Shown piece after piece: positions 1,046 to 52,268 of a stretch of DNA of 64,000 nt. The stretch's first letter is position 1. Each line of letters opens with the position of its first letter. The translations under genes were made by a program, and so were the position numbers. The stretch is from an uncultured Pseudomonadota bacterium (GTDB lineage: Bacteria > Pseudomonadota > Alphaproteobacteria > Acetobacterales > Acetobacteraceae). The notes under the pieces were generated by a model, which had not been told where the DNA came from, made no database searches, and saw only the letters and a list, made by a program, of their open reading frames with translations. The stretch spans positions 5,809-69,808 of the forward strand of contig CAWAZU010000037.1 in NCBI GenBank assembly GCA_963786445.1. The letters run 5' to 3'.

Positions 1046-1104
1046 GTCTCAGGCCCTCCGGACTTAGTCCGATAAACTTAGTCCATCTTCGCGCTGGCAT
1101 CAAC

Positions 1105-3338: not shown

Positions 3339-3376
3339 CCTATATGGTCAGGTGCATCACGCAGGGACGCACTCCC

Positions 3377-4704: not shown

Positions 4705-4705
4705 G

Positions 4706-10734: not shown

Positions 10735-10738
10735 TCCC

Positions 10739-12319
10739 ATGTCGAATGCAGCCACGGACGGCGTTCCGGACGGCAGCGACGGGTTTCTGCCGCGCTTCCT
10801 GGCGCAGGCGTCGCAGGCCCCGCAGCGGCCGTTCGCGCGCTGCGGGGACGAGCAGGTCAGCCTGGGCTGGCTGCATCGCGCCTCCGATGCGGTGGCCGCG
10901 CAGCTGCATCGGCGGGGCATCCGGCCGGGCGATCGTGTCGCCGTCATGTTGCGCAACAGCGCCGCCATGCTGGCGGTGTTCTATGGCCTGGCGAAGGCAC
11001 GCGCCGTGTGGGTGCCGGTGAACGTGCAGCTCCAGCGCGAAGGATTGCGCTATATCCTGGAGCACGCCGAGCCGGCCCTGGTGATCGCCGAGCGGGACCT
11101 TTGGCCGGCCATCGAAGCCAGCGCGGCCGCCTGCCCGGACATCGTGTTCGCCGGCGCACCGGAAGGGCTGGCGGCCTGGCTTGCCGACCCGACCGAATTC
11201 GCGGCCTCTCTGCCGGCGGCCGACGATCTGTTGGCGATCATGTACACGTCCGGCACCACGGGACCGCCGAAGGGCGTGATGGTGTCGCACCGCATGCTGC
11301 GGCTGGCCGGCGAGGCGGTCGTGCGCGTCGCCGACCTCTGCGACGGCGACGTAATGTTCGTCTGGGAGCCGTTGTACCACATCGGCGGCGCGCAGCTGCT
11401 TGTCGTGCCGCTGCTGCGCGATGTGCGGCTGGCGATGGTGCCGCGGTTCAGCGCCAGCCGGTTCTGGCCCGAGGTGCGCGAAAGCCGTGCCACCCACATT
11501 CATTTCCTCGGCGGCATCCTGCAGATCCTGCTGAAGCAGCCGGCAGATCCGCTGGATCGCGACCATTGCGTACGGATCGCGTGGGGCGGCGGCTGCCCGG
11601 CGCCGATCTGGCGGCCGTTCGAGGCGCGCTTCGGCGTGCAGATCCGCGAATGCTACGGCATGACCGAGGCTTCCAGCATTACCACCTGCAACGACCGCGG
11701 CGTGGCCGGCGCGGTCGGGCGGCCGGTGCCCTGGTTCAGCGTCGCGCTGCTCGATCCATCCGGCCGGCCGGTGGGCCATGGCGGGCGCGGCGAGATCGTC
11801 GTCCGCACCAGCATCGCGGGTGCGATCTTTCCCGGCTATTTCCGCAATCCCGAAGCCTCGGCCAGGGCCTTGCGCGACGGTGCGCTGCATACCGGCGACC
11901 TCGGCTCCTGCGATGACGCCGGCAACCTGATCTTCCACGGACGCGTCACCGACAGCGTGCGCTGCCGCGGCGAGAACGTGTCGGCGTGGGAGGTGGAGCA
12001 TGTCGCCGCGCTGCACCCGTCGGTCGAAGACTGCGCAATGATCGGTGTCGCGGCCGAAATCGGCGAGCAGGACATCAAGCTCTTCGTCAAGCCGAAGCCC
12101 GGCCACCGGCTCGATCCGGCGGAGCTGTCGGCGTGGCTGGCGCAGCGCCTCGCGCCCTACCAGATGCCCCGCTACATCGCCGTGGTCGCGGCGTTCGAAC
12201 GCACGCCGAGCCAGCGGATCATGAAGCACCTGCTGCCGTCCGATCTTGCCGGCTGCTGGGACCGGCGGGCGGGCGGCGATGCCGGCGAACGACCAAAGAT
12301 GCAGGAGACGGCGCCATGA
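10739..12319 (+). CDS. AMP-dependent acyl-CoA synthetase/ligase
   Basis: AMP-binding motif IMYTSGTTGPPKGV, plus YGMTE, TGDLG and a C-terminal lysine-loop region. 526 aa. Confidence 0.85.
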   Translation: MSNAATDGVPDGSDGFLPRFLAQASQAPQRPFARCGDEQVSLGWLHRASDAVAAQLHRRGIRPGDRVAVMLRNSAAMLAVFYGLAKARAVWVPVNVQLQREGLRYILEHAEPALVIAERDLWPAIEASAAACPDIVFAGAPEGLAAWLADPTEFAASLPAADDLLAIMYTSGTTGPPKGVMVSHRMLRLAGEAVVRVADLCDGDVMFVWEPLYHIGGAQLLVVPLLRDVRLAMVPRFSASRFWPEVRESRATHIHFLGGILQILLKQPADPLDRDHCVRIAWGGGCPAPIWRPFEARFGVQIRECYGMTEASSITTCNDRGVAGAVGRPVPWFSVALLDPSGRPVGHGGRGEIVVRTSIAGAIFPGYFRNPEASARALRDGALHTGDLGSCDDAGNLIFHGRVTDSVRCRGENVSAWEVEHVAALHPSVEDCAMIGVAAEIGEQDIKLFVKPKPGHRLDPAELSAWLAQRLAPYQMPRYIAVVAAFERTPSQRIMKHLLPSDLAGCWDRRAGGDAGERPKMQETAP

Positions 12320-13068
12320 ACGACAGCCCTTCGGCGACGCGCGACAACGCGGCGGAGACGCAGCAGGCCCGCATCGACCTGGCCGCCGCTTTCCGGATGG
12401 CGGCCCGGCTGAACCTGCACGAAGGCGTGTGCAACCACTTCACGGTCATGCTGCCGGGGCGCCGCTTCCTCATCAATCCGAAGGGGCTGCATTTCGCGCG
12501 GATCACCGCGGGCCGCCTGATCGTGATCGATGAGCAGGGCCGCACCGTCGAGGGCACCGGCCGGCCGCCGACCACCGGCTACGCAATCCACACGCGCATC
12601 CACCTGCTGCATCCCGCGGCGCGCGTGGTGATGCACCTGCATTCGCCCTACGCCACCGCGATCACCGCGATGCAGGGCGGCCGTCTGCAGATGGTGCATC
12701 AGAACGCCGCCCGCTTCTTCGGCAGCATCGCCTATGACGACCACTTCAATGGCATCGCCGATGCGGTCACCGAAGGTGAGCGCATGGCCCGGGCGATGGC
12801 CGACAAGCGCATCCTGTTCCTCGCCAACCACGGCGTCGTGGTGGTCGGCGAAACCATCGCTCAGGTGTTCGACGACGTATATTACCTGGAGCGTAGCTGC
12901 CAGGTGCAGATACTGGCGATGCAGGCTGGCCACAAGCTGAATGTCATGTCCGATGCGATGGCGCAGAGCACGCACGACCAGTTCGCGCGCTTCGCGGTCA
13001 ACGCGGATCTTCACTTCAACGAGTTGAAGGCGATCCTGGACGAGCACGAGCCGGCCTACGCGTCCTGA
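12316..13068 (+). CDS. Class II aldolase/adducin family protein
   Basis: EGVCNHFTV..., HTRIHLLHP...VMHLHSPYATA..., LANHGVVVVG are signatures of the class II aldolase fold. The ATGA start overlaps the ligase gene. Confidence 0.8.
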   Translation: MNDSPSATRDNAAETQQARIDLAAAFRMAARLNLHEGVCNHFTVMLPGRRFLINPKGLHFARITAGRLIVIDEQGRTVEGTGRPPTTGYAIHTRIHLLHPAARVVMHLHSPYATAITAMQGGRLQMVHQNAARFFGSIAYDDHFNGIADAVTEGERMARAMADKRILFLANHGVVVVGETIAQVFDDVYYLERSCQVQILAMQAGHKLNVMSDAMAQSTHDQFARFAVNADLHFNELKAILDEHEPAYAS

Positions 13069-13453
13069 ATTCCCGGCCTGCCCGGCATCGCACCCGCAAC
13101 GGGCAAGCTGCGGTTGCGATCGCCGGCCAGATGCTCAACCGCGTGGTAAAGACCGCAGCGTAACCGTGGGCGTGACGTAACGCCTGCTTGGGGCACGCTG
13201 GACCGCCGATCGCGTCACGACGGCCACCGCCGGCGGTGCGGGCGGGTGCGATAATGACGACGCGCCACAAAATTACGCACACGTACCGAAACGACAACTT
13301 CGCAGTTATTCATGGCGCGCACCATAATCCAAGAATCGGAACATTGCGACCGGGCCAGGATAAGACACTCGTGGCTGTTGACGCGACTCTCTAGTTTGCG
13401 TGTATCACGCCGGCGTGCATCACGGCATACGAGATCCCGCTCAGTAACCCAGC

Positions 13454-13466
13454 ATCAACTGTTGAT
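13454..13466. promoter_or_regulatory. Perfect 6-1-6 palindrome ATCAAC-T-GTTGAT just upstream of the GH16 gene RBS
   Basis: Read directly from the sequence. It lies about 15 nt upstream of AAAGGAAAGGA and the ATG at 13482, within a lower-GC 413-bp intergenic region. Confidence 0.4.
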
Positions 13467-13481
13467 CGAAAGGAAAGGATC

Positions 13482-14807
13482 ATGTCCGGAACACTTAACT
13501 CGGCCGACTACCAGACGGTCTGGAATGATAACTTTACGGAAAGCGCCTCGCTCGACAGCAGCCTGTTCCCGATTCAGTGGGGCGACGCCAGCGAGTTCTC
13601 ATTCGGCGGCAATGGGCTGACACTCACCTCCAACGGCACCGCTGCGGGCTTTCTGACGCCGGACCAAGGCGCCGGCGACTCCTACGGCTACGGTCTGTAC
13701 AGCGTAGCCTTCACCATGCCGACGAGCCAAGCGGCTGGAGCCTATATCTGCCTGTGGCCGGCAACAAACGACTGGCCGGGGCCAGAGATCGATCTGACGG
13801 AACAGCTAAACGGGCAGTCGTATCTGACGGTGCATTGGCAAGGCAGCGGCGACAGCAACCAGTACCAGTCGTTCTACTTCAACGCAAATACATCCCAGCC
13901 GACCACAGTGGCAGTGGATTGGGAGGCGAACAGCCTCACCTTTTACGTCAACGGAAAGGAAGTGGTGCAATATCCGTCTGGCGGCCCCGTCCCTGTTCCC
14001 AAAGACTACGCTGACGGCGGCGAGAACGAAGCATTCGGCATCGGCAATGTCGGCCCGTCGGGAACGGCGCTGACGGTTTCCGACATGAGCTATTCCACAT
14101 CTACCGGCGGCGGCTCATCAACTTCATCTACCGGCGCCGGCTCATCAACTTCATCTACCGGTGGCGGCTCGTCAACTTCGACTTCGTCGGGATCGACCGG
14201 AACATCGCCCAGCACAACGATCGACCTATCCAGCCCCGGCACTGTGCCGGAAACATCCGCTGGCGCCGGTGTGACAGTCCCGATCACGATTTCTGACCCA
14301 GGGTCGAGCGAAGTCTACGCCTTTGTCATGAATTCGAACAACGTGGCGGAGGAGAACTGGATACCAATCAGCCTCAACAGCCTCGGCCAGGCCACCTACG
14401 ATTTCCATTTCGAAAATACCGGCGATTATGTGCTGGCGGTGAATAACACAACGACCCAAACCGATCGTGGTACCTCCTCCCCCATCACAATCACCGATCC
14501 TGCCACTGCTCCCAGCAGTACGATTGAGGTGTCGAATCCCGGCACGCAACATGTCGCCAATACAAACGCTGGTGCCACCGTTCCGATCACTTTTTCCGAT
14601 CCTGGCCTAAGCGAAGTGTATGCATTCGTCATGAATTCCCACAACGTCGCGGAAGAGAACTGGATCGCGATACCGCTGAACTCCCAGGGGCAAGCGACGC
14701 ACGACTTCCACTTCGAACATACCGGCGATTACGTGCTGGCCGTCAGCAATATCAACACCGAGGCCGACAAAGGCTGGTCAGCGCCCATCACGATACTGCA
14801 TAGCTAA
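13482..14807 (+). CDS. GH16-like beta-glycanase with Ser/Thr/Gly linker and two C-terminal repeat domains
   Basis: WPATNDWPGPEIDLTE fits the GH16 ExDxxE catalytic motif. A STGGGSSTS x3 linker follows, then two roughly 95-aa domains that are highly similar (VYAFVMNS.NVAEENWI...DFHFE.TGDYVLAV). There is no N-terminal signal peptide. GC is lower than the flanks. Confidence 0.7.
   Translation: MSGTLNSADYQTVWNDNFTESASLDSSLFPIQWGDASEFSFGGNGLTLTSNGTAAGFLTPDQGAGDSYGYGLYSVAFTMPTSQAAGAYICLWPATNDWPGPEIDLTEQLNGQSYLTVHWQGSGDSNQYQSFYFNANTSQPTTVAVDWEANSLTFYVNGKEVVQYPSGGPVPVPKDYADGGENEAFGIGNVGPSGTALTVSDMSYSTSTGGGSSTSSTGAGSSTSSTGGGSSTSTSSGSTGTSPSTTIDLSSPGTVPETSAGAGVTVPITISDPGSSEVYAFVMNSNNVAEENWIPISLNSLGQATYDFHFENTGDYVLAVNNTTTQTDRGTSSPITITDPATAPSSTIEVSNPGTQHVANTNAGATVPITFSDPGLSEVYAFVMNSHNVAEENWIAIPLNSQGQATHDFHFEHTGDYVLAVSNINTEADKGWSAPITILHS
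14100..14180 (+). repeat. 3 x 27-nt tandem repeat encoding the STG(G/A)GSSTS linker
   Basis: tctaccggcggcggctcatcaacttca occurs three times with 1-3 substitutions per unit, in frame inside the GH16-like CDS. Confidence 0.9.
14792..14803 (+). repeat. Copy H of the recurrent GAWWCTGCATAG motif (function unknown)
   Basis: GATACTGCATAG. It overlaps the last codons and stop of the GH16 gene and lies 180 nt upstream of the ATG at 14983. Confidence 0.6.
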
Positions 14808-14982
14808 ACCACGCCTGCCCGCGCTCCGATCGGGCCTTTCCCGCGGCGCCTGCGCCGCCATCTCGTGCGCATCGCGTCGTCATCCCGGTCACGCCCGCGC
14901 GAATGGCGCAAGCAACACGACAGTTCCGGGCAACCGCCCGACGCTGGGCACGTTGGCGTGAGTTGGCTTGTAGGAGGCGGAA

Positions 14983-15225
14983 ATGGCGGTGTTTGAGGAC
15001 ATGTTTAAGGGTGCCAGTCTGCCCGGTCTCGCGGTCGGAATTGGGGTGGCGGTGTTGGTGCCGGTTGTGCTGCCGGCGGTTGGGCGGGCCTTGCGGCCGA
15101 TCGCGAAGTCCGTCGTCCGCACCGGCATCACCGTCTGGCGCGAAGCCTCCTCCCAGATCGCGGAGAGCACCGGGCCGATCGTCGCCGAAGCACGGTCGGA
15201 GATGGCTGCTGCGCGCAAGTCATAG
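14983..15225 (+). CDS. Small membrane protein, paralog 1 (DUF5132-like, assigned from memory)
   Basis: 80 aa. MAVFEDMFKG + hydrophobic helix GLAVGIGVAVLVPVVLP + amphipathic tail ending AEARSEM. Clear paralog of the 19388-19636 ORF. Confidence 0.65.
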   Translation: MAVFEDMFKGASLPGLAVGIGVAVLVPVVLPAVGRALRPIAKSVVRTGITVWREASSQIAESTGPIVAEARSEMAAARKS

Positions 15226-15281
15226 CGTAGTGTCATCGAGATTTCGCCGCAGCGTCACGCGGCGGTCATGCCCGCGTGTTA

Positions 15282-15309
15282 GCCGCCCTCTCGGTCATGG
15301 AGAGGCGGC
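15282..15309 (+). other. GC-rich hairpin overlapping the RBS of the 15316 gene
   Basis: GCCGCCCTCTC-ggtcatg-GAGAGGCGGC (10-bp stem with one bulged C). The 3' arm contains the GGAGAGG Shine-Dalgarno-like tract, and the ATG lies 7 nt after the stem. Confidence 0.5.
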
Positions 15310-15315
15310 GCGGCG

Positions 15316-15648
15316 ATGTTTCACGTTGCTCACGAATTGCCGGGACGGTTGCGGCTGCGCTCCTCCCGGCTCCGGCGTGACCCGGTGCTGACGGAGGCGA
15401 TGGCGGCGCGGCTCCGCACGTCGCCGGGGGTACTGTCCGTCACCGTCAGCCCGCGCACCGGCAGCCTGCTGATCCACCACGACGGCGCCCCCGGCCGCGC
15501 CGACGCCCTGCGCGCCAAGTTCGCCGTCACATCCGGGGCGCAAGCGCCGGGTCGTAGCGTGGACGCAGCGGTGGAGCGGCTGACCGCGGCGCTGCTGGGA
15601 CACATGGTCGAACGCCTGCTCGGCGCGGTGGCGGCGGCGCTGATCTAG
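15316..15648 (+). CDS. Stand-alone HMA-like (HMA_2-type) domain protein without cysteines
   Basis: 110 aa. HELPGRLRLRSSRL....PGVLSVTVSPRTGSLLIHHD parallels the N-terminal domain of the neighbouring P-ATPase. It has no Cys, so no CxxC site. Confidence 0.65.
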   Translation: MFHVAHELPGRLRLRSSRLRRDPVLTEAMAARLRTSPGVLSVTVSPRTGSLLIHHDGAPGRADALRAKFAVTSGAQAPGRSVDAAVERLTAALLGHMVERLLGAVAAALI

Positions 15649-16208
15649 CCGCCGTCCCGCTTGTCCCGCGCCAGGTCGCGCGCGGCGAGGGCGTAGAACA
15701 GCAGCGACGACGCCGAGCCGAGGACCTGGCCACGGGCAAGCTGCAATACCCCGATGCCGACCAGCGCGCGCGATACCGACGGCAGGCCGAGGCGTCGGCT
15801 CGCCTGAAAGCCGTTCCAGAGCAATTCCACCGCATTGCCCGCGAAACGGCCGCGCGCAGCCTGCATCGCCCCCAGCCCGGCAAGACCGCCGGCAACCAGC
15901 GCCAGGGCCGGCAGGCGCCGCCCCGCGCGACGCGGCCTCGCGGGCACCGCGGGCGGCGTGCTGACGGCGAACAGTCCGGCCGACCGAGCCGCCGCCGCCA
16001 CCGGCGCGAAATCGCCTGCGTGGCGCACGACGAGGCTGCCGAGGCGGGGCGTCGCGGCCACCGCCGCCACGCCCGCCGCTGCGCGCAGGGCCGTCACGGC
16101 CGTCGCGAAGAAGGCCGTATCGCCGCGGCGCGCCGGCACCACGAGTCGCGTCCGCCCCGCGACCGCGTGCGCGACATGCGCTTGCGGCAGCCTGTCAGGG
16201 CCGGACAT
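15645..16208 (-). CDS. HMA-like domain protein with C-terminal transmembrane segments
   Basis: ATG at 16208 lies 7 nt after GGGAGG. N-terminal HAVAGRTRLVV....GVAAVAATPRLGSLVVRH is followed by 2-3 predicted TM helices (LALVAGGLAGLGAM..., ALVGIGVLQLA...). There is no Cys. Its stop shares a CTAG with the convergent 15316 gene. Confidence 0.6.
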   Translation of the reverse strand: MSGPDRLPQAHVAHAVAGRTRLVVPARRGDTAFFATAVTALRAAAGVAAVAATPRLGSLVVRHAGDFAPVAAAARSAGLFAVSTPPAVPARPRRAGRRLPALALVAGGLAGLGAMQAARGRFAGNAVELLWNGFQASRRLGLPSVSRALVGIGVLQLARGQVLGSASSLLFYALAARDLARDKRDGG

Positions 16209-16305
16209 GATGCGCCTCCCCGCCGAGTGTACCGGTGCCGCTGCGAACCGGTCGCATCCGGCGACGTTGAGGCGCGGGCACAAGGAATGCACTGGGGGGC
16301 CAACC

Positions 16306-16572
16306 ATGCCGCGCAGCTACGGGGCCGGACTTGCAACTGGAATCGCGATCAGCGTTATCGCCGCGGTGCTCGCGCCACTGTGGCGGCCGGCGGCGTCGCG
16401 CTATGGACGGCAGGCCGCCAAGGCGGCGCTCAAGCAAAGCATGGTCGCCTTCGAACTCGGCCGCGACCGCCTCGCCGAGGTATCCGAGACTGTCGCCGAC
16501 ATGATGGCGGAGGCACAGGTCGAACTCGCCGCCGACCGTGTGAACGGCGAAGATCCGGCCGAACCATCCTGA
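16306..16572 (+). CDS. Small membrane protein, divergent paralog 2
   Basis: 88 aa. It has an N-terminal TM helix GLATGIAISVIAAVLAP, then an amphipathic tail (AEVSETVADMMAEAQVE) with the same architecture as the 14983 and 19388 proteins. Confidence 0.5.
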   Translation: MPRSYGAGLATGIAISVIAAVLAPLWRPAASRYGRQAAKAALKQSMVAFELGRDRLAEVSETVADMMAEAQVELAADRVNGEDPAEPS

Positions 16573-16576
16573 CAGC

Positions 16577-19387
16577 TCAGATCGCCGCATCGCGCGCGCG
16601 CGCCTCGTTGACCAGATAGGGCACGAGGCCGCCGGCCAGAATCGCGGCGCTCGCGGCCGCGCCGACCGGGGTGACGCCGAGCAATCCGCGCACCCCGGGC
16701 AACAGCATCGCCGCCCCCTGCCCCGCCAGCGACAGCGCGATCGTGCCGGTCAGCACCCGGTTCGGCGCCCGCCCGACGCCGCGCGGACGGCAGGTGAAGG
16801 CGTGAAGCAACTGGGCAATGGTCAGGCTGCCGAAGGCGACGCTGCGCGCCTCCGCCCGGCCACGCACCAACAGGCTGCTCGCCAGCGCGCCGGACGCGAT
16901 CACCCCACCGTCCACGGCGAGCCGCCGCAGCGCCCTGCCGTCGATCACCGGAGCCTCCCGCGGCGGCGGCGGGCGCTGCATCAGCCCCGGCGCAGCATCC
17001 TCCGCGACCAGTGCCAAGCCGGGCATGACGTCGGAAACGAGGTTGATCCACAGCAGCTGCAAGGGCGTGAGCGCCGCCGCAGCGCCTCCGGCGGTCGCGG
17101 CCAGCACCAGCGCGATCTCGCTCAGATTGGTGCCGAGCAGGTATCTCGCGGCGCGACGCACATTCTCCCGCGCGGCGCGGCCGTGCCGCATGCCCGCCAC
17201 CACCGCCGCGAGCCCGTCGTCCTGCAGCACGATGTCGGCCACCTCGCGCGCCGCTTCGGCAGCGTTGCGGCCCATGGCGATGCCGACATCGGCCGCCTTC
17301 AGCGCCGGCCCGTCGTTCAGGCCGTCGCCTACCATGGCGACGGTGACGCCGGCGTTCTGCAGCACCTGCACGATGCGCAACTTCTGCGACGGCGTCACCC
17401 GTGCGAACACGTCGGTCTGCCGTGCCGCGGCGGCGAGGACGGCGTCGCTCAACCCATCCAGCGTGACGCCATCGATCACGCGCGGCCCGTCAGCACCGCC
17501 GAACCCGGCCGCGACCGCCACGGCCCGGGCCGTCGCGTTCTGGTCGCCAGTCAGCACCAGACAGTGCACGCCCGCCTGGCTCAACGCCGCGAGCAGCGCC
17601 GGCACCTCCGCCCGCAGCGGGTCGGATAGCCCGGCGATGCCCAGGAAGTCCAGGCGCGCAACCCGCGCCTCCGCCGCCGGCGCCAGGTGCGCGGACGCGA
17701 ACCCCAGCACCCGCAGACCCTCGCGCGCCATCGCGACGTTCCCTCGCTTGGCTTCGGCGCGGGCAGTCGGGTCGATTGCACACAGGTCGAGCACGGCGTC
17801 CGGGCTGCCCTTGACCGCAACCAAGGTGCCGCCGTCCGGCAGGGCGTGGAAGGTGGCCATGAAACGCCCGGATTCGCTGCGATGCTGCACGGACAGCCGT
17901 GGCTGCGCCGCCCGCAGCGCCGCCACGTCAAGGCCCGCCGCCTGGGCGCGCTCCAGCAGCGCCGTCTCGGTGGCGGACCCGAGCGGCGAGCCGTCGCCAT
18001 CGAGCTGCGCGTCGCTGCACAGCACACCGATTGCCAGCAGACGCCGCTCGTCGGCGGCGGCGATGGCGGCGACCGACATCAGATTGCGGGTCAGCGTGCC
18101 GGTCTTGTCGAAGCAGACCACCTGTGCCGCTCCCAGCGTCTCCAGCGCGTCGAGCCGGCGCACCAGTGCGCCCTCGCGCCGCATCGCCTCGATGCCCCGC
18201 GCGAGGGCCGCGGTGGCGACGGCGGGCAGCCCTTCCGGGATCGCAGCCACGGCAAGCGAGACCGACGTGGCGAGCGTCGGGCCGAGCGCCAGCCCGCGCA
18301 GCATGCCGATGCCGAACACCGACGCGCAGGCCAGCAGCGACACGCCGATCAGCCTTCGGCCAAGCTCCGCGAGCTGCCGTTCCATCGGCGTCGCGGGTCG
18401 CTTGGCGCTGCCCAGGAGGCGCTGGATGCGCCCCATCTCTGTCCGCGCCCCGGTCGCGACGGCGAGAGCCGTGCCGGTGCCGCCGGTGATCGCGGTGCCG
18501 CGGAAAACCATGTTGGCGCGCTCGGCAAGCGGCAGCTTCGCGCAGAGCGGGCCGGCGGTTTTCGCCACCGGCAGGCTCTCGCCGGTCAGCATGGCCTCGT
18601 TCACCGACAGTTCGCGCGCCTGCACGATCCGCGCATCGGCGGCGACCAGCGTGCCGGGACGCAACAGCAGCAGGTCACCCGGCACGACATCGGCGAACGG
18701 CACCTCGCGCGGCGCGCCGTCGCGCATCACGCGGGCGGTGGCAGAGGGCGGCCGGCTCAGGCCGGCGATGCGACGCTCCGAGCGGCTTTCCACGGCGTAG
18801 GCCAGGCCGCCGCTCAGCAGCAGCACACCGGCGATCGCCGCCGCTTCCAGCAGCGCGCCGGTGACCACAGAGAGCGTGGCGGCGCCGGCCAGCAGCAGCA
18901 CCGGCAGGGTCGCGAACTGGTCGGCGGCAATCGCGAGCGGCGGTCGCGGCTGACGCTGGTACAACGTGTTGCGGCTGACCTTCGCGAGTCGCGCCCGGGC
19001 CGCCTCGCTGCCGAGGCCATCCGTCGCCGAGGACTGCAGCGCGAGCGCCGCCGCACCGGCGTCCTGCGCCGGCCAATCCGGGTCCGCTTCGGGCGCCGCC
19101 GCGCGGCGGGCGGCCAGCTGCGCCAGCCGTCCGGCCACGCGCGCCAGCGGCAGCTCCGGATCGAACAGCACCAGGACGTTGCCCGTGCGCGCGCTCGCCG
19201 ACACGCCATGCACGCCGGGTTGCGCCGCCATACCCTGTTCGATGGCCGTGGCCAGGGCCGGCGCGCGACGCAGCTCCGTCAGGTGCAACCGCGCGCGGCC
19301 GGGAAGCGCGGCATGCACCACGCGCACACGCCGCCCGGCGCGACCGGCCGCGCCGGGCGGCGCGACCGCCCTGCCCCGCACATGCAC
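16577..19387 (-). CDS. Cation-translocating P-type ATPase (P2-like PEGLP type) with N-terminal Cys-less HMA-like domain
   Basis: 936 aa with TGES, IPEGLPAV in M4, DKTGTLT, TGDQ, MVGDGLNDGPALKAADVGIAMG and LLWINLVSD. The N-terminus is HAALPGRARLHL...RTGNVLVLFDP. There is no CPx metal motif. Confidence 0.85.
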   Translation of the reverse strand: MHVRGRAVAPPGAAGRAGRRVRVVHAALPGRARLHLTELRRAPALATAIEQGMAAQPGVHGVSASARTGNVLVLFDPELPLARVAGRLAQLAARRAAAPEADPDWPAQDAGAAALALQSSATDGLGSEAARARLAKVSRNTLYQRQPRPPLAIAADQFATLPVLLLAGAATLSVVTGALLEAAAIAGVLLLSGGLAYAVESRSERRIAGLSRPPSATARVMRDGAPREVPFADVVPGDLLLLRPGTLVAADARIVQARELSVNEAMLTGESLPVAKTAGPLCAKLPLAERANMVFRGTAITGGTGTALAVATGARTEMGRIQRLLGSAKRPATPMERQLAELGRRLIGVSLLACASVFGIGMLRGLALGPTLATSVSLAVAAIPEGLPAVATAALARGIEAMRREGALVRRLDALETLGAAQVVCFDKTGTLTRNLMSVAAIAAADERRLLAIGVLCSDAQLDGDGSPLGSATETALLERAQAAGLDVAALRAAQPRLSVQHRSESGRFMATFHALPDGGTLVAVKGSPDAVLDLCAIDPTARAEAKRGNVAMAREGLRVLGFASAHLAPAAEARVARLDFLGIAGLSDPLRAEVPALLAALSQAGVHCLVLTGDQNATARAVAVAAGFGGADGPRVIDGVTLDGLSDAVLAAAARQTDVFARVTPSQKLRIVQVLQNAGVTVAMVGDGLNDGPALKAADVGIAMGRNAAEAAREVADIVLQDDGLAAVVAGMRHGRAARENVRRAARYLLGTNLSEIALVLAATAGGAAAALTPLQLLWINLVSDVMPGLALVAEDAAPGLMQRPPPPREAPVIDGRALRRLAVDGGVIASGALASSLLVRGRAEARSVAFGSLTIAQLLHAFTCRPRGVGRAPNRVLTGTIALSLAGQGAAMLLPGVRGLLGVTPVGAAASAAILAGGLVPYLVNEARARDAAI

Positions 19388-19636
19388 TCAGACCGGCTCC
19401 GCGCTGCCCGGCTCGTGCATTTCGCTGCGCGCCTCGGCGGCGAGGTCGCTGGCGGTCTCGCTGACATAGCCGACGGCGCCCTGGACGCGGTCGTAGGCCA
19501 TCAGGCCCGCCTTGATCACCGCCTTGGCCGCCGGCCGCAGCACCGGGCGCAGGACAGGCAGCAGCACGGCCGCGCCGATCCCGACCGCGAGACCCGGACC
19601 AACTCCGCCCTCGAACATATTCTCGAACCACGCCAT
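19388..19636 (-). CDS. Small membrane protein, paralog 3 (DUF5132-like)
   Basis: 82 aa. MAWFENMFEGG...GLAVGIGAAVLLPVL...AAEARSEM. Its TGA stop is immediately followed by the ATPase ATG with a zero-nt gap. Confidence 0.7.
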   Translation of the reverse strand: MAWFENMFEGGVGPGLAVGIGAAVLLPVLRPVLRPAAKAVIKAGLMAYDRVQGAVGYVSETASDLAAEARSEMHEPGSAEPV

Positions 19637-19718
19637 GGCTTACCTCCACGCGAACAGGGAAAGCTGCAAAGGCTAGCGGCCGGCAGCCGTATTGCACGGC
19701 CCCTCACGCCGTGTTGCG

Positions 19719-20180
19719 TCACCAGTCTTCAACCAACACCTGTGCCGCTTGGTCCAGAATCGCGCGCCGACGCGGCGACGCGCGTTCCTGCGCCCGTGCC
19801 AGCGCACGACGGAAATGCGCAACGTGGCGGTGGTACCGGCTCGCAGCGTCATCGTCATTCCAGGCATAGCGCCGGGATCGTGTGCGCGCCGCCCCCTCGA
19901 ACCTCTGCACGGTTTCCCGCGCCAGTTGCTGCCGGTGTTCGCGCGTGCCGGAACCGGAGATCGTTTCCAGCAATATCTTGACGGCGGTTTCGGCAAGCTT
20001 GCTCATCGCGCCGCCCTCCGCCTCGGCCTCCGCCTCGAGAAACAAGGCGAGGCCGGATCTAAGCGCCGTGCGCAGCGGCCGCGCGAGCTGGGGCAGAATG
20101 ACCGGCAGCACCAGCGTCGCCGCACCCGCAGCCGCGAGCACCGCGATGTTGCCCTCCAGGGCGCTTTCAAACATGGCCAT
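19719..20180 (-). CDS. Membrane protein, paralog 4 with extended C-terminal region
   Basis: 153 aa. The N-terminus MAMFESALEGN + helix AAAGAATLVLPVILP matches the paralog family. The 90-aa charged C-terminal extension is unique to this copy. Confidence 0.55.
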   Translation of the reverse strand: MAMFESALEGNIAVLAAAGAATLVLPVILPQLARPLRTALRSGLALFLEAEAEAEGGAMSKLAETAVKILLETISGSGTREHRQQLARETVQRFEGAARTRSRRYAWNDDDAASRYHRHVAHFRRALARAQERASPRRRAILDQAAQVLVEDW

Positions 20181-20434
20181 GCGGCAGGAACGCAGATGGG
20201 GCGGCGGCGTTCGCTACCATTCGGGTCCGATCAGCGCCCCGCTGGCGGCGCTCTACGCGCCGATCGTATCGGCAGCAGCACGACGGATGCGAACGACAGC
20301 ACGATCATGCGGCCCATGGCAGCGCCTCGGAAAATGGCCATGCGCCTCCTGCGGGCGTTCGGGTGAGCCTGCGGATGCGCATGCCGCATGTCCAAAACTG
20401 GTCAGTTTCCATCAACCCCTTCCCGGTCGCCCAT

Positions 20435-21334
20435 TTAGAAGCGGAAGCCGACGGCGAGCACCGGGCCGTAGGCGACCAGATTAAGCTCACGTGAACTGCC
20501 GTCCGGCCGGACCTGGATGCTGCGGTCGGTGCCAAGGGCGGCAAAGGCAAGACCCACGTCGAGCCATCGCGTGATCAGGTAGGACGCGCCGAGCCGAGCG
20601 TTCCATCCCCATACGCCCCCATCGACACCCAGGCCCGTGATTGCCGACGCGAGCTCGATCCGCCAGTGCGGCGAGGGATAGTAGTCGGCGCGGAAGCCGA
20701 GCCATGGCTGCACGAAGTCGTAGCTGACGCTGGCCCCACCGAAGCGGGATTCTGCGAACGACACCGATGCGCTGGTCGCGAAATACGAGATGCCGGCGCG
20801 CACGTCGAAGGAGACGTTGTTGGGGGCAAAATTCGGAATGATCTGGTAGCCGATCCCCGGCGAGACGTATACGACAGAGTCGCTGGCCTCCAGCCTGGCT
20901 TGCGGCACATTGACCAGCGCCGGAAAGGTCTTGGTCTGGTGCGCCGAGATCCAATCGACGTCAAGCTCTGCGGACCATGGTCCGTAGCGGACCAGCCCAT
21001 CGCCGACGAACGCGCCGTTCAGTGAATCCACCAAGTTGGAAACCGTCACGCGGGGCCGGTTGATGCTGATATCCGTGCCGGGCGGCCGGTTCAGCCCGAT
21101 CGTCGCATTCAGCGCGGGCAGCCACAGATACGGCGTCAGCTCGACCTGAATACGATACGATCCGTCTGGCGAATAGCCATCCCGGTTAGAGAACAACTGT
21201 GCCCGCGCGGGCCCGGCAGACGTGATTGTGATCGCGAGGGCGGCCGCTACCAATACGCCCCCTGCGGCTGGCTTCGGCGGGATGTTGGCGATGCGTGCCA
21301 CACGCACGAGTTTGCCGCGATCACGGCCCATCAT
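20435..21334 (-). CDS. Putative outer-membrane beta-barrel protein
   Basis: Signal-like AALAITITSAGPARA. Alternating hydrophobic beta-strand pattern, aromatic-rich, with a terminal ...AVGFRF ending in Phe. The start is uncertain (the ORF extends to 21472). Confidence 0.55.
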   Translation of the reverse strand: MMGRDRGKLVRVARIANIPPKPAAGGVLVAAALAITITSAGPARAQLFSNRDGYSPDGSYRIQVELTPYLWLPALNATIGLNRPPGTDISINRPRVTVSNLVDSLNGAFVGDGLVRYGPWSAELDVDWISAHQTKTFPALVNVPQARLEASDSVVYVSPGIGYQIIPNFAPNNVSFDVRAGISYFATSASVSFAESRFGGASVSYDFVQPWLGFRADYYPSPHWRIELASAITGLGVDGGVWGWNARLGASYLITRWLDVGLAFAALGTDRSIQVRPDGSSRELNLVAYGPVLAVGFRF

Positions 21335-21473
21335 CGCCTCGCGCCTGCGTCGTACCAATCCGGTCAAGCCGGTCGGCTCTGCGATGCACTGGCGCGCCGG
21401 AACGGCCGACACCGGCGCCGGCACATGGCTGGCTGTTATCATGGCCGAACGGCTGCGGCCGTTCATGCGCATG

Positions 21474-21908
21474 TCAGTCGGCGAGCGATACCTTCAGGCC
21501 CTCGGCCGCCAGCGAGAGGCTCAGGCCGGACGTGGTGGACGTCAGGTGGATCACCACGCCGTTCTGGTTCCGCATCGCCGCGATGCTGCCGCCGCCGCCG
21601 AGCGTGGCGCCGGCCGCGACCGAGGTGAAGACGCCGTTGATGCCCTGTGGCGTCTTCAGCCCCTCCACGCTTCCGGCCGCGGTGTATTGGGTGACGCCGA
21701 CGCTTGCGAGCGAGACGCCGCTGATGTTGAGCGGATAGCGATTGCCCTGGAAGATGAGGGTGCCTTTGCCCCAGCTGTAGCCGATGCCTGCGGCGACGGA
21801 GCCGCCCGACAGTTCGATGACGCCATCCGGCGTCTGAGCCGAAGACGGGACAGGATGGGCCAGGAGCAGCCCGAGGCCGACGCCAAGGGTGGCGAGTGAC
21901 GTACGCAT
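21474..21908 (-). CDS. Exported Gly-rich hypothetical protein (paralog of 35332-35862)
   Basis: ATG at 21908 follows GGAGG. Signal peptide MRTSLATLGVGLGLLLAHPVPSSAQ. It shares G.L..QG..YP...G...NGVV.HL....L.LSL with the 35.3-kb lipoprotein. Confidence 0.6.
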   Translation of the reverse strand: MRTSLATLGVGLGLLLAHPVPSSAQTPDGVIELSGGSVAAGIGYSWGKGTLIFQGNRYPLNISGVSLASVGVTQYTAAGSVEGLKTPQGINGVFTSVAAGATLGGGGSIAAMRNQNGVVIHLTSTTSGLSLSLAAEGLKVSLAD

Positions 21909-22060
21909 TGCATGACCTCCTTCAGGGTATATTCCTCCGCTTCGCCAGCGCTTCTGGCGCTCCGGCAGCGGCGGAGGCCGTATTGAGGGATCCGACACGC
22001 CCCACTGAGGAGTTTGGCAAATCCCGCGGTGTCAGATTGAAATGCCGCCGGGCTTCCCGA

Positions 22061-22072
22061 CTATGCAGATTT
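22061..22072 (-). repeat. Copy A of the recurrent motif (AAATCTGCATAG on the minus strand)
   Basis: It overlaps the stop codon of the AraC gene and lies about 153 nt upstream of the start at 21908. Confidence 0.6.
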
Positions 22073-23071
22073 GGCAAGTCGCGCGGAAAAATGTGGACCT
22101 CGGAGGCGTCGCAGAGTGGTCGAAGGGCTTTCACCGAAGACGGTCCGGTAGATGACCGCGAAGCGGCCAAGTTCGGTAAAGCCGTGGCGCCTCGCGTGCT
22201 CAGCCACTGTCGCTGTCGCCGGATCAGCGCGAAGCAGCGCCCTGCGGACTCGGTTGAGCCGCCGCAGGATCAGATACCGGCGCGCGCTGATGCCGAGGAA
22301 CTCATGACAGCAAGCGCGCAAGGTCAGCCCCGACACGCCGACGGCGGCGCACAGTTCGGATATGCGCCACGCATAGTCAGGGTCCACTGCGAGCGCATCC
22401 TCGAACCGAACCATGATGCTGGCGTGCCTGCGCTTCTCCGTCCAAGCGGGACGGATTTCGGCTTCGGTCAGACATGTCACCAGCGCCACGGTCAGATCCT
22501 GCTCAAGGCTGCGGGCAACCTCGGGGTGTGTGATCATATCCGCCCGCCTCTCGGCGAACCGGCCGGCCTGGGCATACAGGCGCATCAGCCGCGCCGTCGC
22601 GCGCGCGGGCGGCCGCAGCGCCTTGCCGGTGACCGGGACGAGGAGATCCGCTCCCGAGAGCGCCCGGCCATAGCCGGCAAGGTATTCAGGTGCGAGCGAT
22701 ATCCAGCCCCAGCGGCTGGGCCCGCTGGTCCGCTGGTAGAAACGCTCGCCGCGGCAATGGAACACGACGTCACCCACGTGCAGTTCCACCCCATTCCAGA
22801 TCGGCGGCGGGTCCGAGTGGAGCGGGAACGCGATGATGTTCCGATGCCGCGTCAGCGCAATGGAGGCAATGCGGGGCAACTCTTCCCTGGCGCGCAGCAA
22901 GCTGAGGTTGTGCAAGTCGGTGCTGGTGAGGCACGCCGTGAAATCGCCGGGGGCCGTGAGGACAAGGTCGATCGACGCACCAGGAATACTGATCTCGTAG
23001 GCCTCGGGATCGATGAAGTTATATGTGCCACTCCCAGGCATTCGAAAGGCCTCGCTGCACTGGCCGCTCAC
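22061..23071 (-). CDS. AraC family transcriptional regulator
   Basis: 336 aa. The C-terminal double HTH is ISELCAAVGVSGLTLRACCHEFLGISARRYLILRRLNRVRRAL...VAEHARRHGFTELGRFAVIYRTVFGESP. Confidence 0.85.
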   Translation of the reverse strand: MSGQCSEAFRMPGSGTYNFIDPEAYEISIPGASIDLVLTAPGDFTACLTSTDLHNLSLLRAREELPRIASIALTRHRNIIAFPLHSDPPPIWNGVELHVGDVVFHCRGERFYQRTSGPSRWGWISLAPEYLAGYGRALSGADLLVPVTGKALRPPARATARLMRLYAQAGRFAERRADMITHPEVARSLEQDLTVALVTCLTEAEIRPAWTEKRRHASIMVRFEDALAVDPDYAWRISELCAAVGVSGLTLRACCHEFLGISARRYLILRRLNRVRRALLRADPATATVAEHARRHGFTELGRFAVIYRTVFGESPSTTLRRLRGPHFSARLAKSA

Positions 23072-23387
23072 CGATCGAACTCGTGATGTTCCCTCCAGCG
23101 TGCCGCACCGGTTCGGGCGTGGCTATGCGATATCGGCCGGCTTGAGCGAGCGAGTTCGCACGCTTGGCCTGGGCGCCGGTCCTGCGCAATTGCGATCGAT
23201 AAGATTGCGGTGACATCGGCAGGGCGGCCGCAACTGTCACGGTGCGGGTTGCGCGCGAGACTGTCGTCGACAACTCTCCTTCTGGTTTGGCCAGGAGCAG
23301 GAGAGCACGTTCATCCCTGCCGTGCCGCCGCAATCCTGCGCGGGAATTGCCCTTGCCGAACGGAAGAGCATCCGGGTCGGCAGACGA

Positions 23388-24011
23388 TCAGAACCAGCCC
23401 CGCGGCGCAGGCTGGATCGAGACGGCGAGCGTCTCGCTTACCACTGCGGTGATGGTGTCACCGACCTTCAACTGTGAGAGCATGGGGATTCGTGCAGGGT
23501 CGGTGACGTCCACCGTGTAGACGCCGCCGCCAGATGGGCTGACGACGTCGACACGGTGCGCCGCCATGTCGATACCCACGACGAGGCCGCTCATCTTCGT
23601 GACACGCACGCCGACGCCGCCGGGTGCCTGCGCAGGTTGGCTGGTGACCAGCGTACTTTCATCGACAGACCGTGGGGTGCCATTGCCGCCTTGCGGCTGC
23701 GAGACGACAAAGGCCACCGAACGATAGTACTTGGCGTTCACCGTATCGCCGACCTTCAGCAGGTCGAGGCGCACAATTGGTCCAGCAGTGACGGTAACCC
23801 GCGAGCCCGAACGGCCGAGAAGCGTCACCTTCCGTGTGCTGGGATCAATCGACTGGATCTTGGCGTAGACGGTCACCGCCTCGGATTCGGGCACGACATT
23901 CGCCACTGCCGGATTGCCTTGCGCCGCCGCAAAAGGCGCAAGCGACATCGGCAGGCAGGCAGCGCAGATGATCAGTGCTGCTTCCATGGCCCTTCGAGGG
24001 AACGCTATCAT
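23388..24011 (-). CDS. Exported hypothetical protein with an internal duplicated KVGD-containing beta module
   Basis: Signal peptide ...AALIICAACLPMSLAPFAAAQG. There are two similar segments (LLKVGDTVNAKYY..., QLKVGDTITAVVS...). The alternative start is 23987. Confidence 0.5.
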   Translation of the reverse strand: MIAFPRRAMEAALIICAACLPMSLAPFAAAQGNPAVANVVPESEAVTVYAKIQSIDPSTRKVTLLGRSGSRVTVTAGPIVRLDLLKVGDTVNAKYYRSVAFVVSQPQGGNGTPRSVDESTLVTSQPAQAPGGVGVRVTKMSGLVVGIDMAAHRVDVVSPSGGGVYTVDVTDPARIPMLSQLKVGDTITAVVSETLAVSIQPAPRGWF

Positions 24012-52250: not shown

Positions 52251-52268
52251 GGATCACCGTGAGGGAAC

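Follow-up and report, generated by a model that had tools for sequence, protein, structure and literature searches.

The 64,000-nucleotide stretch of DNA analysed here (hereafter the window) comes from an uncultured bacterium of the Acetobacteraceae (Alphaproteobacteria; NCBI GenBank assembly GCA_963786445.1, contig CAWAZU010000037.1, positions 5,809 to 69,808). At positions 14983-20180 it carries a compact cluster of seven genes, termed A to G, in which a P-type ATPase of the P2A type is packed together with small membrane proteins of the Pfam family DUF5132 and with proteins bearing a cysteine-free variant of the HMA domain, named CoBaHMA. The genes and the N-terminal domain of the pump are laid out as follows (lengths in amino acids, aa):

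A, 14983-15225, plus strand, 80 aa: DUF5132 type 1 ('MAVFEDMFKG'), upstream of B
B, 15316-15648, plus strand, 110 aa: CoBaHMA (HMA_2) protein with a short hydrophobic C-terminal tail
C, 15645-16208, minus strand, 187 aa: CoBaHMA domain followed by four predicted membrane helices
D, 16306-16572, plus strand, 88 aa: DUF5132 type 2 ('LAPLWRPAASRYGR'), divergent from C
E, 16577-19387, minus strand, 936 aa: P2A-type P-type ATPase of the CoBaHMA-bearing clade
N-terminal CoBaHMA domain of E, 19109-19327, minus strand: residues about 21-93
F, 19388-19636, minus strand, 82 aa: DUF5132 type 1
G, 19719-20180, minus strand, 153 aa: DUF5132-like N-terminus; first gene of the G-F-E unit

All seven open reading frames (ORFs) were found to have a coding-type GC content at third codon positions (GC3; 0.76-0.90 in 7/7), and Shine-Dalgarno-like motifs are present in most of them. 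The mechanical ORF of C reaches position 16307; alignment of its homologues places their starts at the ATG that gives the 187-aa protein. The genes are arranged in four packed units, namely A-B, C (convergent on B), D (divergent from C across 97 nt) and G-F-E, with an overlap of 4 nt between B and C and a gap of 4 nt between D and E. At the F/E junction (19385-19390) the stop codon of F abuts the start of E: TGA is followed immediately by an in-frame GTG, which suggests that translation of F and E is coupled. Read-through at this point would yield a fusion of DUF5132 to the pump. A database protein of 1058 aa (P0041) is a DUF5132-ATPase fusion; it lacks strands b0 and b1 of the CoBaHMA domain, may be an assembly or gene-calling artefact and was not used as Rosetta-stone evidence.

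In Pfam searches six of the seven proteins were matched, four of them above cut-off (A, B, D and F) and two below it (C and the HMA_2 region of E), with G giving no match. The first-pass annotation of this DNA had described seven ORFs encoding three HMA-like domains that lack cysteine and share a motif, together with four paralogous small membrane proteins, and had predicted HMA_2-type and DUF5132-type matches. This description holds: the ORFs lie where it had placed them and are of coding type; neither B nor C nor residues 1-100 of E include a cysteine, and CxxC is thus absent; A, D and F are Pfam DUF5132 proteins and G is DUF5132-like by a hidden Markov model (HMM) of our own; and both predicted families were recovered.

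The HMA-like domains of B, C and E belong to the Pfam family HMA_2 (PF19991; gathering cut-off 30 bits), which is the CoBaHMA domain of the literature (PMC8890360; bioRxiv 10.1101/2024.07.07.602159), defined as an HMA fold with an extra strand b0 carrying a conserved His, basic strands b1 and b2, and no CxxC (PMC8890360). B was matched above the cut-off (E = 4.7e-8, 33.6 bits); C scored 17.2 bits (0.005; own HMM 4.5e-16) and residues 24-77 of E scored 23.3 bits (E = 6.6e-5; own HMM 8.3e-20), both below it. The three domains have in common the motif H..PGR.RL ... PGV ... TGS/N.L(V/I), and an HMM built from them retrieves independent CoBaHMA proteins at 1e-11 to 1e-23. In an AlphaFold2 (AF2) model of C computed from an 11-sequence alignment, residues 9-83 reach a predicted local distance difference test (pLDDT) score of 96-98 and adopt the fold b0-b1-a1-b2-b3-a2-b4 (E9-16, E19-23, H31-42, E47-53, E58-63, H68-76, E81-83, where E denotes strand and H helix). 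Foldseek comparison of C with the PDB returned HMA domains (MerP, CopZ, Atx1-type, rice HMA and iHMA) at a probability of 0.97-1.0 and a root-mean-square deviation (rmsd) of about 2 A; the E-values are weak (0.03-0.3), as is usual for a 60-residue domain, and these matches count as support for the fold only, taken together with probability, rmsd and Pfam. The domain of E shows the corresponding elements E21-25, E31-36, H43-54, E59-65, E70-75 and H81-93 and is joined to the pump body through a disordered linker with low pLDDT at 96-98 (AF2).

Conservation within these domains is concentrated on His and Arg. Among 70 pumps, the residue equivalent to H25 of E is nearly invariant and G30, R31 and R33 are invariant, giving an 'R-rich' Arg31-x-Arg33 element next to His25; in C-type proteins, H14, R19, R21 and R28 are invariant. 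By charge calculation the CoBaHMA domains are net basic. Behind its domain, C has four helices that form two hairpins ('GxxQxxRGxxLGxA'), modelled with moderate confidence (AF2), an architecture resembling FezC and CoBaHMA-DUF454 proteins. A calcyanin-like identity of C was considered and rejected, as only two short hairpins and no long GlyZip are present. B is anchored in the membrane by its tail and C by its two helical hairpins, and on the cytoplasmic surface of the membrane all three CoBaHMA domains expose a beta-sheet face rich in His and Arg. Fusion of the domain to P-type ATPases, or its presence on transporters, is reportedly noted in the CoBaHMA paper of Gaschignard et al. 2024.

The four small proteins share a second architecture. 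Against the Pfam family DUF5132 (PF17195; gathering cut-off 25 bits), A scored 32.1 bits (E = 1.2e-7; own HMM 8e-26), D 25.4 bits (E = 1.5e-5; own HMM 3.1e-26) and F 29.4 bits (E = 8.5e-7). G has no Pfam or NCBIfam family match; its N-terminus is DUF5132-like (own HMM E = 3.9e-10; phmmer to DUF5132 proteins 1e-3 to 1e-4) and after it come an exact EAEAEAE repeat and a C-terminal extension that is helical and basic. Full-length relatives of G amount to 76 cluster representatives among 1.84 billion proteins, a small and uncatalogued family. All four proteins (A, D, F, G) are built from a single transmembrane (TM) helix with a GxxxG motif (in F and A, G15-LAV-G19-I-G21), a basic amphipathic helix and a Glu/Ala-rich acidic helix. 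The TM helix is neutral, the second helix carries a charge of +2 to +5 and the third, Ala/Glu-rich helix one of -2 to -6. The most conserved part of the family is the cytoplasmic acidic helix (E68 invariant, A67 near-invariant), not the TM helix. From the positive-inside rule, the C-terminal helices of the DUF5132 proteins are placed in the cytoplasm, on the same side as all three CoBaHMA domains.

The pump E matches the P-type ATPase families of Pfam with Cation_ATPase_N (PF00690) and Cation_ATPase_C (PF00689). Its catalytic motifs are intact (D427-K-T-G-T431, which is invariant, with LTGES and GDGLNDGP), TM4 carries PEGLP (P384-E-G-L-P388), and the AF2 helices are consistent with M1-M10, that is, 10 TM helices. 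The AF2 model, based on 70 sequences, shows a normal P2-type body (pLDDT 86; predicted TM-score, pTM, 0.82). The best relatives in the PDB are Listeria LMCA1 (362 bits), human SPCA1 (331) and SERCA (307), at only about 35-40% identity. The nearest NCBIfam models describe Ca2+ pumps of the PMR1, SERCA and PMCA types, namely TIGR01522 (PMR1-type; 448.6 bits against a cut-off of 798.3), TIGR01116 (377.9 against 703.4) and TIGR01517 (322.2 against 507). Because E scores below every equivalog cut-off, its substrate is not assigned by family; on its sequence, E is classed as a P2-class pump that is not an equivalog of any characterised subfamily. For a TCDB/FUPA class of the pump, nothing relevant was found in the literature searched.

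The putative ion site of E comprises E385, N754, E757, N782, S785, D786 and Q859. Five of these, E385, N754, E757, N782 and D786, we take to be the equivalents of SERCA E309, N768, E771, N796 and D800. These five positions are invariant in 70 homologues; the equivalent of T799 is Ser or Thr, and throughout the clade an invariant Gln (Gln859) takes the position of SERCA E908, which is Arg in LMCA1. The signature of the clade, E-N-S-E-N-S/T-D-Q-H, is invariant as well and is shared by many ordinary bacterial P2A pumps; among the 69 used as controls, E-N-x-E-N-T-D-Q-H is common. The signature therefore argues only for a normal Ca-type site, and a special ion site formed by Gln859/His862 was rejected, since the same residues are found in many generic bacterial P2A pumps. 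In sequence identity, the CoBaHMA-bearing pumps form one cluster apart from the 69 controls (mean 48% within, 37% to the controls). No riboswitch that would name an ion was found at the locus (Rfam) and no metal regulator lies nearby, so that Ca2+ is the best inference and not a demonstrated substrate: the cation that E exports from the cytoplasm is most likely Ca2+, with a similar divalent cation as a possible alternative.

The association of these three families was found to be conserved far beyond the window. In the forward scan (one genome per species, 80 P2A-type loci, with HMMs of the window's own paralogues run against every ORF), separate DUF5132 or small CoBaHMA genes were found near 16/19 CoBaHMA-ATPases compared with 0/69 generic P2A pumps (Fisher p = 6.7e-15). 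The 19 comprise the window and the loci L001-L015 (without the duplicate L004), L085, L087, L089 and L090, and the 16 flanked loci span Alpha-, Gamma- and Deltaproteobacteria, Nitrospirae and Binatia. Three are unflanked: L005 from Crocosphaera, and L008 and L011 (Bryobacteraceae), the last two being on contigs that are short or truncated. L005 has 8 kb downstream and only about 1 kb upstream of the pump. For the Cyanobacterial and Acidobacterial pump relatives, a separate accessory gene was not seen on the short DNA available. In the reverse direction, a metagenome scan was seeded on a narrow DUF5132 alignment and is biased to type-1 proteins like F; it recovered a CoBaHMA ORF in 61/74 DUF5132-seeded loci, most of the others being cut within 1 kb, and a CoBaHMA-ATPase in 10/12 loci with at least 3 kb on both sides. 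The synteny on which the first-pass annotation had made its proposal depend is therefore present in both directions (16/19 against 0/69; 10/12), and the association is not a product of chance.

The order of the genes is also retained. L089 and L090, whose pumps are 70% and 65% identical to E, keep the order G-F-E / D / C (/A) among unrelated flanking genes, with homologues of G at the matching position in both and a homologue of A at the matching position in L090. The pair of D and C recurs in L002 (11132-11443 and 11448-12023). A DUF5132 gene lies directly upstream of the pump gene in L001, L002, L003, L087, L089, L090 and numerous metagenomic loci. The same is seen in Methylobacterium nodulans (strain ORS 2060, locus near 5.836 Mb of CP001349), Sinorhizobium garamanticum and a 4.6-Mb genome, with HMA_2 genes beside the pump. 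Altogether, the module is common in Rhizobiales and Rhodospirillales. Furthermore, a DUF5132 gene followed by a CoBaHMA gene, often overlapping, was found in L002, L007, L009, L013, L014, L015, L085 and L088, and a DUF5132-CoBaHMA-TM pair occurs without a pump in L088, in L143 (beside a DUF445 gene) and in L162 (divergent from an MgtE/CBS transporter). Because the pair recurs, even in the absence of a pump, 'DUF5132 then CoBaHMA gene' is regarded as the core unit, and its persistence in L088, L143 and L162 points to a functional pair; the window holds it three times, as A-B, D/C and F-E. In L162 the MgtE/CBS transporter (838-2892, minus strand) lies beside 3258-4031. In loci of rhizobial type, a gene for a DUF445 membrane protein repeatedly adjoins the module (L143 3111-4412, minus strand; L003 11946-13244; L087 5081-6382).

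Base composition differs between the module and its surroundings: the core (16001-20000) has 73-74% GC, compared with 64-66% in the flanks (12001-16000 and 20001-24000). Together with the unrelated flanking genes of the closest relatives, this fits a mobile cassette and suggests, from sequence features, that the module is horizontally mobile.

A parallel is offered by the ferrosome (fez) gene clusters. There, the ATPase FezB, of class P1B-6, carries an 'R-rich' RxR/RxRxR motif at its N-terminus and the TM motifs D[Y/F]SCA and HNxxT; FezC combines an N-terminal HMA domain, two TM helices and an R-rich motif; FezA is a one-TM GxxxG protein, and extra R-rich and GxxxG proteins occur in most fez clusters (10.1101/2020.01.10.902569). 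Ferrosomes depend on FezB and FezC, and Fez proteins co-purify with the organelles (10.1101/2020.01.10.902569). Fez proteins under experimental study were compared by their published motif strings only, which are set against those of the window below:

R. palustris FezB (RPA2333), published supplementary table: VEIVHRLPGRIRLRY
S. putrefaciens FezB, published supplementary table: LALVHHCTNRVRWRY
RPA2337 (110 aa, ferrosome cluster), published supplementary table: EIAHHLPGRIRLKLK
D. magneticus FezC (DMR_28340), published supplementary table: MIASCIEGRIRFRHP
Proteins of about 190 aa from group 3-10, published supplementary table: TVCHQVSGRTRLRVP
M. tuberculosis CtpC type, GRxR N-terminal motif: SDAAGRMRVKVD
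Window E: VVHAALPGRARLHL (VHAALPGRARLHL)
Window B (110 aa, the same length as RPA2337): HVAHELPGRLRLRS (HELPGRLRLRS)
Window C (187 aa, plus 4 helices): HVAHAVAGRTRLVV (HAVAGRTRLVV)

On this sequence comparison, the b0/b1 signature of CoBaHMA and the Fez 'R-rich motif' are one and the same, which makes the ferrosome analogy stronger than first stated. Additional evidence came from fez-like loci, which were found by tblastn with a low-GC CoBaHMA query; tblastn of the B domain against plasmids found nothing. In Fusobacterium vincentii (L173), a P1B pump with DYSCG in TM4, HNSTT in TM6 and the N-terminus IVHRLRGRIRIKS is accompanied by a 165-aa FezC-like protein that matches full-length Pfam HMA_2 at 3.8e-52, by a second HMA_2 protein, and by a 90-aa GxxxG protein ending in IEDLIAEKS with a weak DUF5132 likeness (own HMM 9e-5; hhalign E = 1.3e-4, probability 54%). 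On a plasmid of Cereibacter azotoformans (L172), among iron-uptake genes, FeoA and three small ORFs, of which the one just before the pump has a weak DUF5132 match (Pfam 0.031; hhalign 1.8e-4), are found with a P1B pump carrying HNGST and the N-terminus IAHELSCRLRLRS, and with an annotated 'HMA2 domain-containing protein' (Pfam 1.9e-9). On a plasmid of Gloeothece verrucosa PCC 7822 (L171), a 738-aa pump annotated as heavy-metal-translocating carries Pfam HMA_2 and none of the tested P1B TM motifs. L171 (genes at 3009-5225, 6404-6697, 6923-8491, 10048-11550 and 12546-13037) also encodes a DUF5132 protein and a 522-aa 'HMA2' protein, the body of which resembles a P-type ATPase that has degenerated. 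Its other products are a lipid kinase of the YegS type, bearing a CoBaHMA domain at the C-terminus, and a member of the DUF1269 family, which occurs near ccyA in Microcystis too. The module and the fez-like clusters thus have homologous CoBaHMA components. The relation between DUF5132 and FezA-type strings is a likeness at motif level and is only suggestive; the P1B-6 iron pumps of fez clusters may have the same family of small proteins beside them.

The window and the ferrosome clusters thus share a small one-TM GxxxG protein, a pump with an N-terminal H..PGRxRL domain, an HMA-plus-TM protein and R-rich proteins of about 110 aa. They differ in that the pump here is P2A (PEGLP in TM4, 10 TM helices, Ca-type sites) and FezB is P1B-6, that the small proteins are Pfam DUF5132, that the hosts of the module are aerobic soil Alphaproteobacteria rather than mostly anaerobes, and that no iron-homeostasis gene (FeoA, DUF2202 ferritin-like, Fur/DtxR) was found among the annotated flanking genes. 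The fez analogy drawn in the first-pass annotation accordingly stands as far as it rests on the common CoBaHMA/HMA_2 family, whereas strict fez membership was rejected on the class of the pump (PEGLP, P2A architecture) and any organelle role is hypothetical.

A second precedent is the PacL1-CtpC system. PacL1, a DUF1490 protein of 93 aa, has a TM helix at its N-terminus and Glu/Ala repeats on the cytoplasmic side, and its gene lies directly upstream of that of the P-type ATPase CtpC in one operon (PMC9374683). Its interaction with CtpC residues 1-85 needs the Glu/Ala repeats; furthermore, PacL1 is needed for normal CtpC levels and forms membrane foci and high-molecular-weight complexes with the pump, and the pair works in the plasma membrane (PMC9374683). 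DUF6110 relatives of PacL1 accompany P1B6 pumps, the FezB class (PMC9374683), and there are several PacL paralogues per genome; the PacL1-CtpC system of M. tuberculosis is known as 'metal efflux platforms / effluxosomes' (PMC9374683; PMC13043812). The likeness to the window lies in a protein of about 90 aa with a TM helix and a Glu/Ala helix upstream of a P-type ATPase, in the presence of several paralogues, and in a CtpC N-terminal domain with a GRxR motif, comparable to CoBaHMA on E. However, CtpC is a P1B6-like Zn/Mn exporter and not P2A, and separate CoBaHMA proteins are not described in that system. No DUF1490 or DUF6110 match was obtained for the window proteins, even at E up to 10. Strict PacL membership was rejected on these grounds (no DUF1490/DUF6110 hit, pump P2A), and given the lack of a Pfam cross-match between DUF5132 and DUF1490/DUF6110, the likeness to PacL1 serves as a working analogy.

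In Microcystis aeruginosa PCC 7806, the neighbourhood of ccyA, a marker of intracellular amorphous calcium carbonate (iACC), encodes two DUF5132 proteins, a CoBaHMA-DUF454-like hairpin protein, a CoBaHMA-only protein and a Ca2+/H+ exchanger, and the cax, adjacent DUF5132 and CoBaHMA-DUF454 genes are co-expressed with ccyA (10.1101/2024.07.07.602159). The same Pfam families are therefore found beside a Ca2+ transporter, with the b0 His, basic b1/b2 and no CxxC as in B, C and E; the transporter there is a CAX exchanger and calcyanin is present, whereas the pump of the window is a P2A ATPase and no GlyZip protein was found with it. That paper contains no general DUF5132-CoBaHMA-ATPase module (10.1101/2024.07.07.602159). 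Among better-known pumps, the P2A Ca2+-ATPases (LMCA1, SPCA1/PMR1, SERCA) share DKTGT, TGES and PEGLP with E, which differs by its extra N-terminal CoBaHMA domain. The small proteins of the window, with the TM helix at the N-terminus and the C-terminus in the cytoplasm, are opposite in topology to phospholamban and sarcolipin and show no sequence relation to these regulators. The CopZ-CopA pair resembles the module in its ferredoxin-like HMA fold and in combining free HMA-fold proteins with an HMA-fold pump N-terminus, but the window domains lack any cysteine and have an extra b0 strand with a conserved Arg/His face, the free CoBaHMA proteins are membrane-anchored, and the pump is P2A.

Taken together, these comparisons suggest that E is a Ca-type P2A pump for export or sequestration within a module that is complete in itself, a 'pump plus scaffold'. 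The DUF5132 proteins would bind the basic CoBaHMA domains of E, B and C through their acidic Glu/Ala helix, on the model of PacL1, and this binding would stabilise the pump and cluster E with B and C in a specialised membrane assembly. A probability of roughly 0.55 is assigned to this reading, that is, to a Ca-type exporter E stabilised and clustered by DUF5132 helices bound to the CoBaHMA domains. Since the CoBaHMA family also accompanies P1B-6 pumps and a Ca2+/H+ exchanger, the module may be viewed as a P2A (Ca-type) member of a general system that organises cation pumps. That the far side of the pump is an internal lumen rather than the periplasm is given about one chance in three to four.

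Several points weigh against this reading. The DUF5132-CoBaHMA contact is suggested by adjacency, charge and analogy with PacL1, and within a locus the two families do not occur in 1:1 numbers. In the literature, CoBaHMA is proposed to bind anionic lipids, not a protein partner (PMC8890360; 10.1101/2024.07.07.602159). C and the N-terminus of E lie under the Pfam HMA_2 cut-off, and E lies under every NCBIfam equivalog cut-off. Homology of DUF5132 to FezA-type, DUF1490 and DUF6110 proteins is not established; against fez-like small proteins, hhalign gives E of about 1e-4 at a probability of about 50%, with no Pfam cross-hit.

Four other explanations were weighed. That small, spurious ORFs have been thrown together in a GC-rich genome would be conceivable, as chance ORFs of some length abound in high-GC DNA (12 kb contain 88 ORFs of 50 aa or more); coding GC3 in 7/7, the Shine-Dalgarno-like motifs in most, Pfam matches for six, homologues of all seven in conserved order elsewhere, and above all the synteny (Fisher p = 6.7e-15) refute it, and its probability is practically negligible. 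A more serious proposal, still regarded as unlikely, is that the module builds or loads an internal, membrane-bounded, Ca-rich compartment, be it as a calcium counterpart of the ferrosome or as a loader of Ca/polyphosphate (polyP) or amorphous carbonate granules, in which GxxxG-bearing amphipathic small proteins would shape or mark the membrane. It is favoured by the occurrence of the CoBaHMA accessory family in fez clusters, where FezB and FezC are required for ferrosomes, by the same families beside ccyA and cax in an iACC former, and by the number of paralogous small membrane proteins, four being more than a simple regulator would need. P2A pumps such as SERCA and SPCA transport away from the cytosol, a direction that fits the loading of a lumen. 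Membrane-bound, 'acidocalcisome-like' Ca/polyP granules are known from the Alphaproteobacteria Agrobacterium and Rhodospirillum (PMC3198990), and the module is common in Rhizobiales and Rhodospirillales. On the other hand, no mineral-nucleating or lumen-specific gene was found: a crude periodicity scan of all window ORFs gave no calcyanin-like GlyZip run, and the annotated flanks contain no ferritin-like, carbonic anhydrase, polyP, H+-PPase, carbonate or phosphate genes, nor CAX or BicA among roughly 20 annotated flanking genes. In addition, the equally good PacL-CtpC precedent acts in the plasma membrane, the CoBaHMA domain on a lipid kinase argues for a general membrane-surface regulatory domain, and no Ca granule is linked to genes of the module. 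A broader form of this proposal takes the module as the genetic basis of a Ca-loading, ferrosome-like compartment of aerobic Alphaproteobacteria and further phyla, perhaps supplying the missing Ca2+ pump of the Ca/polyP granules in Rhizobiales and Rhodospirillales or of non-cyanobacterial carbonate granules, with CoBaHMA and DUF5132/FezA/PacL as one ancient toolkit that would recruit P2A, P1B-6, P1B6-like, CAX and perhaps MgtE transporters into membrane domains or organelles; it is put forward tentatively, with the odds against it.

The remaining two explanations keep the pump in a more conventional setting. In one, CoBaHMA would bind anionic lipids and tune ordinary plasma-membrane Ca2+ efflux, and the DUF5132 proteins would be independent intramembrane subunits comparable to sarcolipin, phospholamban, FXYD or KdpF, without contact to CoBaHMA. 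The conserved basic patch of the domain and the published anionic-lipid hypothesis fit this account, as do the fusion of CoBaHMA to a lipid kinase in L171 and the membrane tethering of all window CoBaHMA proteins; small single-pass regulators are, moreover, common for P2 and other P-type pumps. It is nonetheless doubtful, because the adjacency of DUF5132 and CoBaHMA genes is specific and persists without a nearby pump (L088, L143, L162), conservation of DUF5132 peaks in the cytoplasmic acidic helix and not in the TM helix, and PacL1 binds the N-terminal domain of its pump via Glu/Ala repeats. In the other, the substrate would be a different cation (Mn2+, Mg2+, Sr2+ or Fe2+), and the pump N-terminus would receive it from the His-bearing CoBaHMA proteins, acting as donors in the manner of CopZ. 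The position of E below all NCBIfam equivalog cut-offs leaves room for this, and SPCA/PMR1-type relatives also carry Mn2+; free HMA-like proteins together with an HMA-like pump N-terminus mirror CopZ-CopA, and one DUF5132-CoBaHMA pair adjoins an MgtE/CBS transporter, with others beside P1B pumps. Yet the site residues match the SERCA site I/II ligands except for E908Q and T799S and are the same as in many bacterial P2A pumps, CoBaHMA has neither Cys nor an evident metal site, its conserved residues being Arg and one His, and no metal-responsive riboswitch or regulator lies near the cluster. This last explanation is accordingly judged quite improbable.

The reading of E as a Ca-type exporter held in a DUF5132-CoBaHMA scaffold bears on three lines of research. 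No characterisation of a P2A pump with DUF5132 and CoBaHMA was found in the searchable literature, where one paper mentions DUF5132, and the Fez, PacL and CoBaHMA literature searched contains no cross-mention of each other's families. The P2A-DUF5132-CoBaHMA module and its association statistics, the equivalence of the Fez R-rich motif and CoBaHMA, and the PacL-like reading of DUF5132 appear to be undescribed there. The component families are already catalogued and the CoBaHMA domain is published. The view of the first-pass annotation that this is a candidate for an undescribed system is thus sustained for the P2A module and has to be narrowed for its HMA-like domain, which already has a name (CoBaHMA, PMC8890360; Pfam HMA_2). 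The ferrosome, PacL effluxosome and CoBaHMA/calcyanin lines each concern a cation transporter amid the same kinds of small proteins; the window presents a fourth version of such pump surroundings, widespread and built on a Ca-type P2A pump, and supplies connecting facts, namely the identity of the R-rich motif with the CoBaHMA signature and the full-length HMA_2 match in a fez-like P1B-6 cluster. A real contact between DUF5132 and CoBaHMA would provide a general and testable rule for the stabilisation and positioning of bacterial P-type pumps, and if the toolkit proves to be one and interchangeable, the ferrosome, effluxosome and iACC fields would be unified. Even as nothing more than a regulated exporter of Ca2+ at the plasma membrane, the pump would be the first of the P2 type in bacteria to have scaffold subunits dedicated to it. 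For the question of bacterial calcium-storage compartments, genetically tractable hosts are available in Methylobacterium, Sinorhizobium and Rhizobium.

A further association was observed among relatives of E. A full-length MetK-like gene follows or overlaps the CoBaHMA-ATPase gene in 8 genome loci and 6 metagenomic loci (two of them near-identical), spanning Cyanobacteria, Nitrospirae, Binatia, and Delta-, Alpha- and Gammaproteobacteria; the sub-clade of the window is without it. The positions recorded are:

L005: 4066-5274
L006: 4805-6004
L007: 10606-11847
L008: 3796-4860
L009: 10936-12117
L010: 7072-8265
L015: 11204-12391
L085: 11723-12910
L102: 5102-6298
L110: 4979-6178
L123: 5349-6554
L131: 5409-6608
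L014: 5541-7202 (mechanical ORF; the MetK-like part is the last ~400 codons)

These proteins score 307-384 bits against a metK equivalog cut-off of 309.4, near or just above it, so annotation pipelines will call them MetK. They keep the triphosphate-binding residues, and Asp118 and Asp238 are replaced (Asp238 by His in all); both bind methionine in E. coli MetK. On MetK-ATPase operons, nothing relevant was found in the literature searched. A conserved protein of about 230 aa, without a Pfam or NCBIfam family, lies directly upstream of the pump in this MetK-type module:

L006: 952-1686
L007: 6826-7527
L008: 23-469
L010: 3134-3772
L085: 7857-8561

Around the cluster in the window, the genes encode an acyl-CoA ligase, an aldolase, a GH16-like protein, an outer-membrane protein (OMP), an AraC regulator and a sulfatase. 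Just upstream of the module, at 13482-14807 (plus strand), a 441-aa protein combines a weak GH16/concanavalin-like N-terminal domain with a Ser/Thr/Gly-rich linker and two near-identical repeats of about 110 aa ('SEVYAFVMNS.NVAEENWI...GDYVLAV') in a stretch of about 64% GC. Directly upstream of G and on the same strand, 20435-21998 (minus strand) encodes a 345-aa OMP beta-barrel-like protein (weak OMP_b-brl match) and a 174-aa Gly/Ser-rich, secreted-looking protein; neither is kept beside the module in L089 and L090. Farther away and unrelated to the module, 48751-52005 (minus strand) encodes a 1084-aa protein of the DNA polymerase III alpha type with PHP, finger, HHH and OB domains, preceded by two co-oriented small ORFs (52002-52250 and 52269-52799). 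The region 48751-52799 may represent an error-prone cassette of the DnaE2 type.

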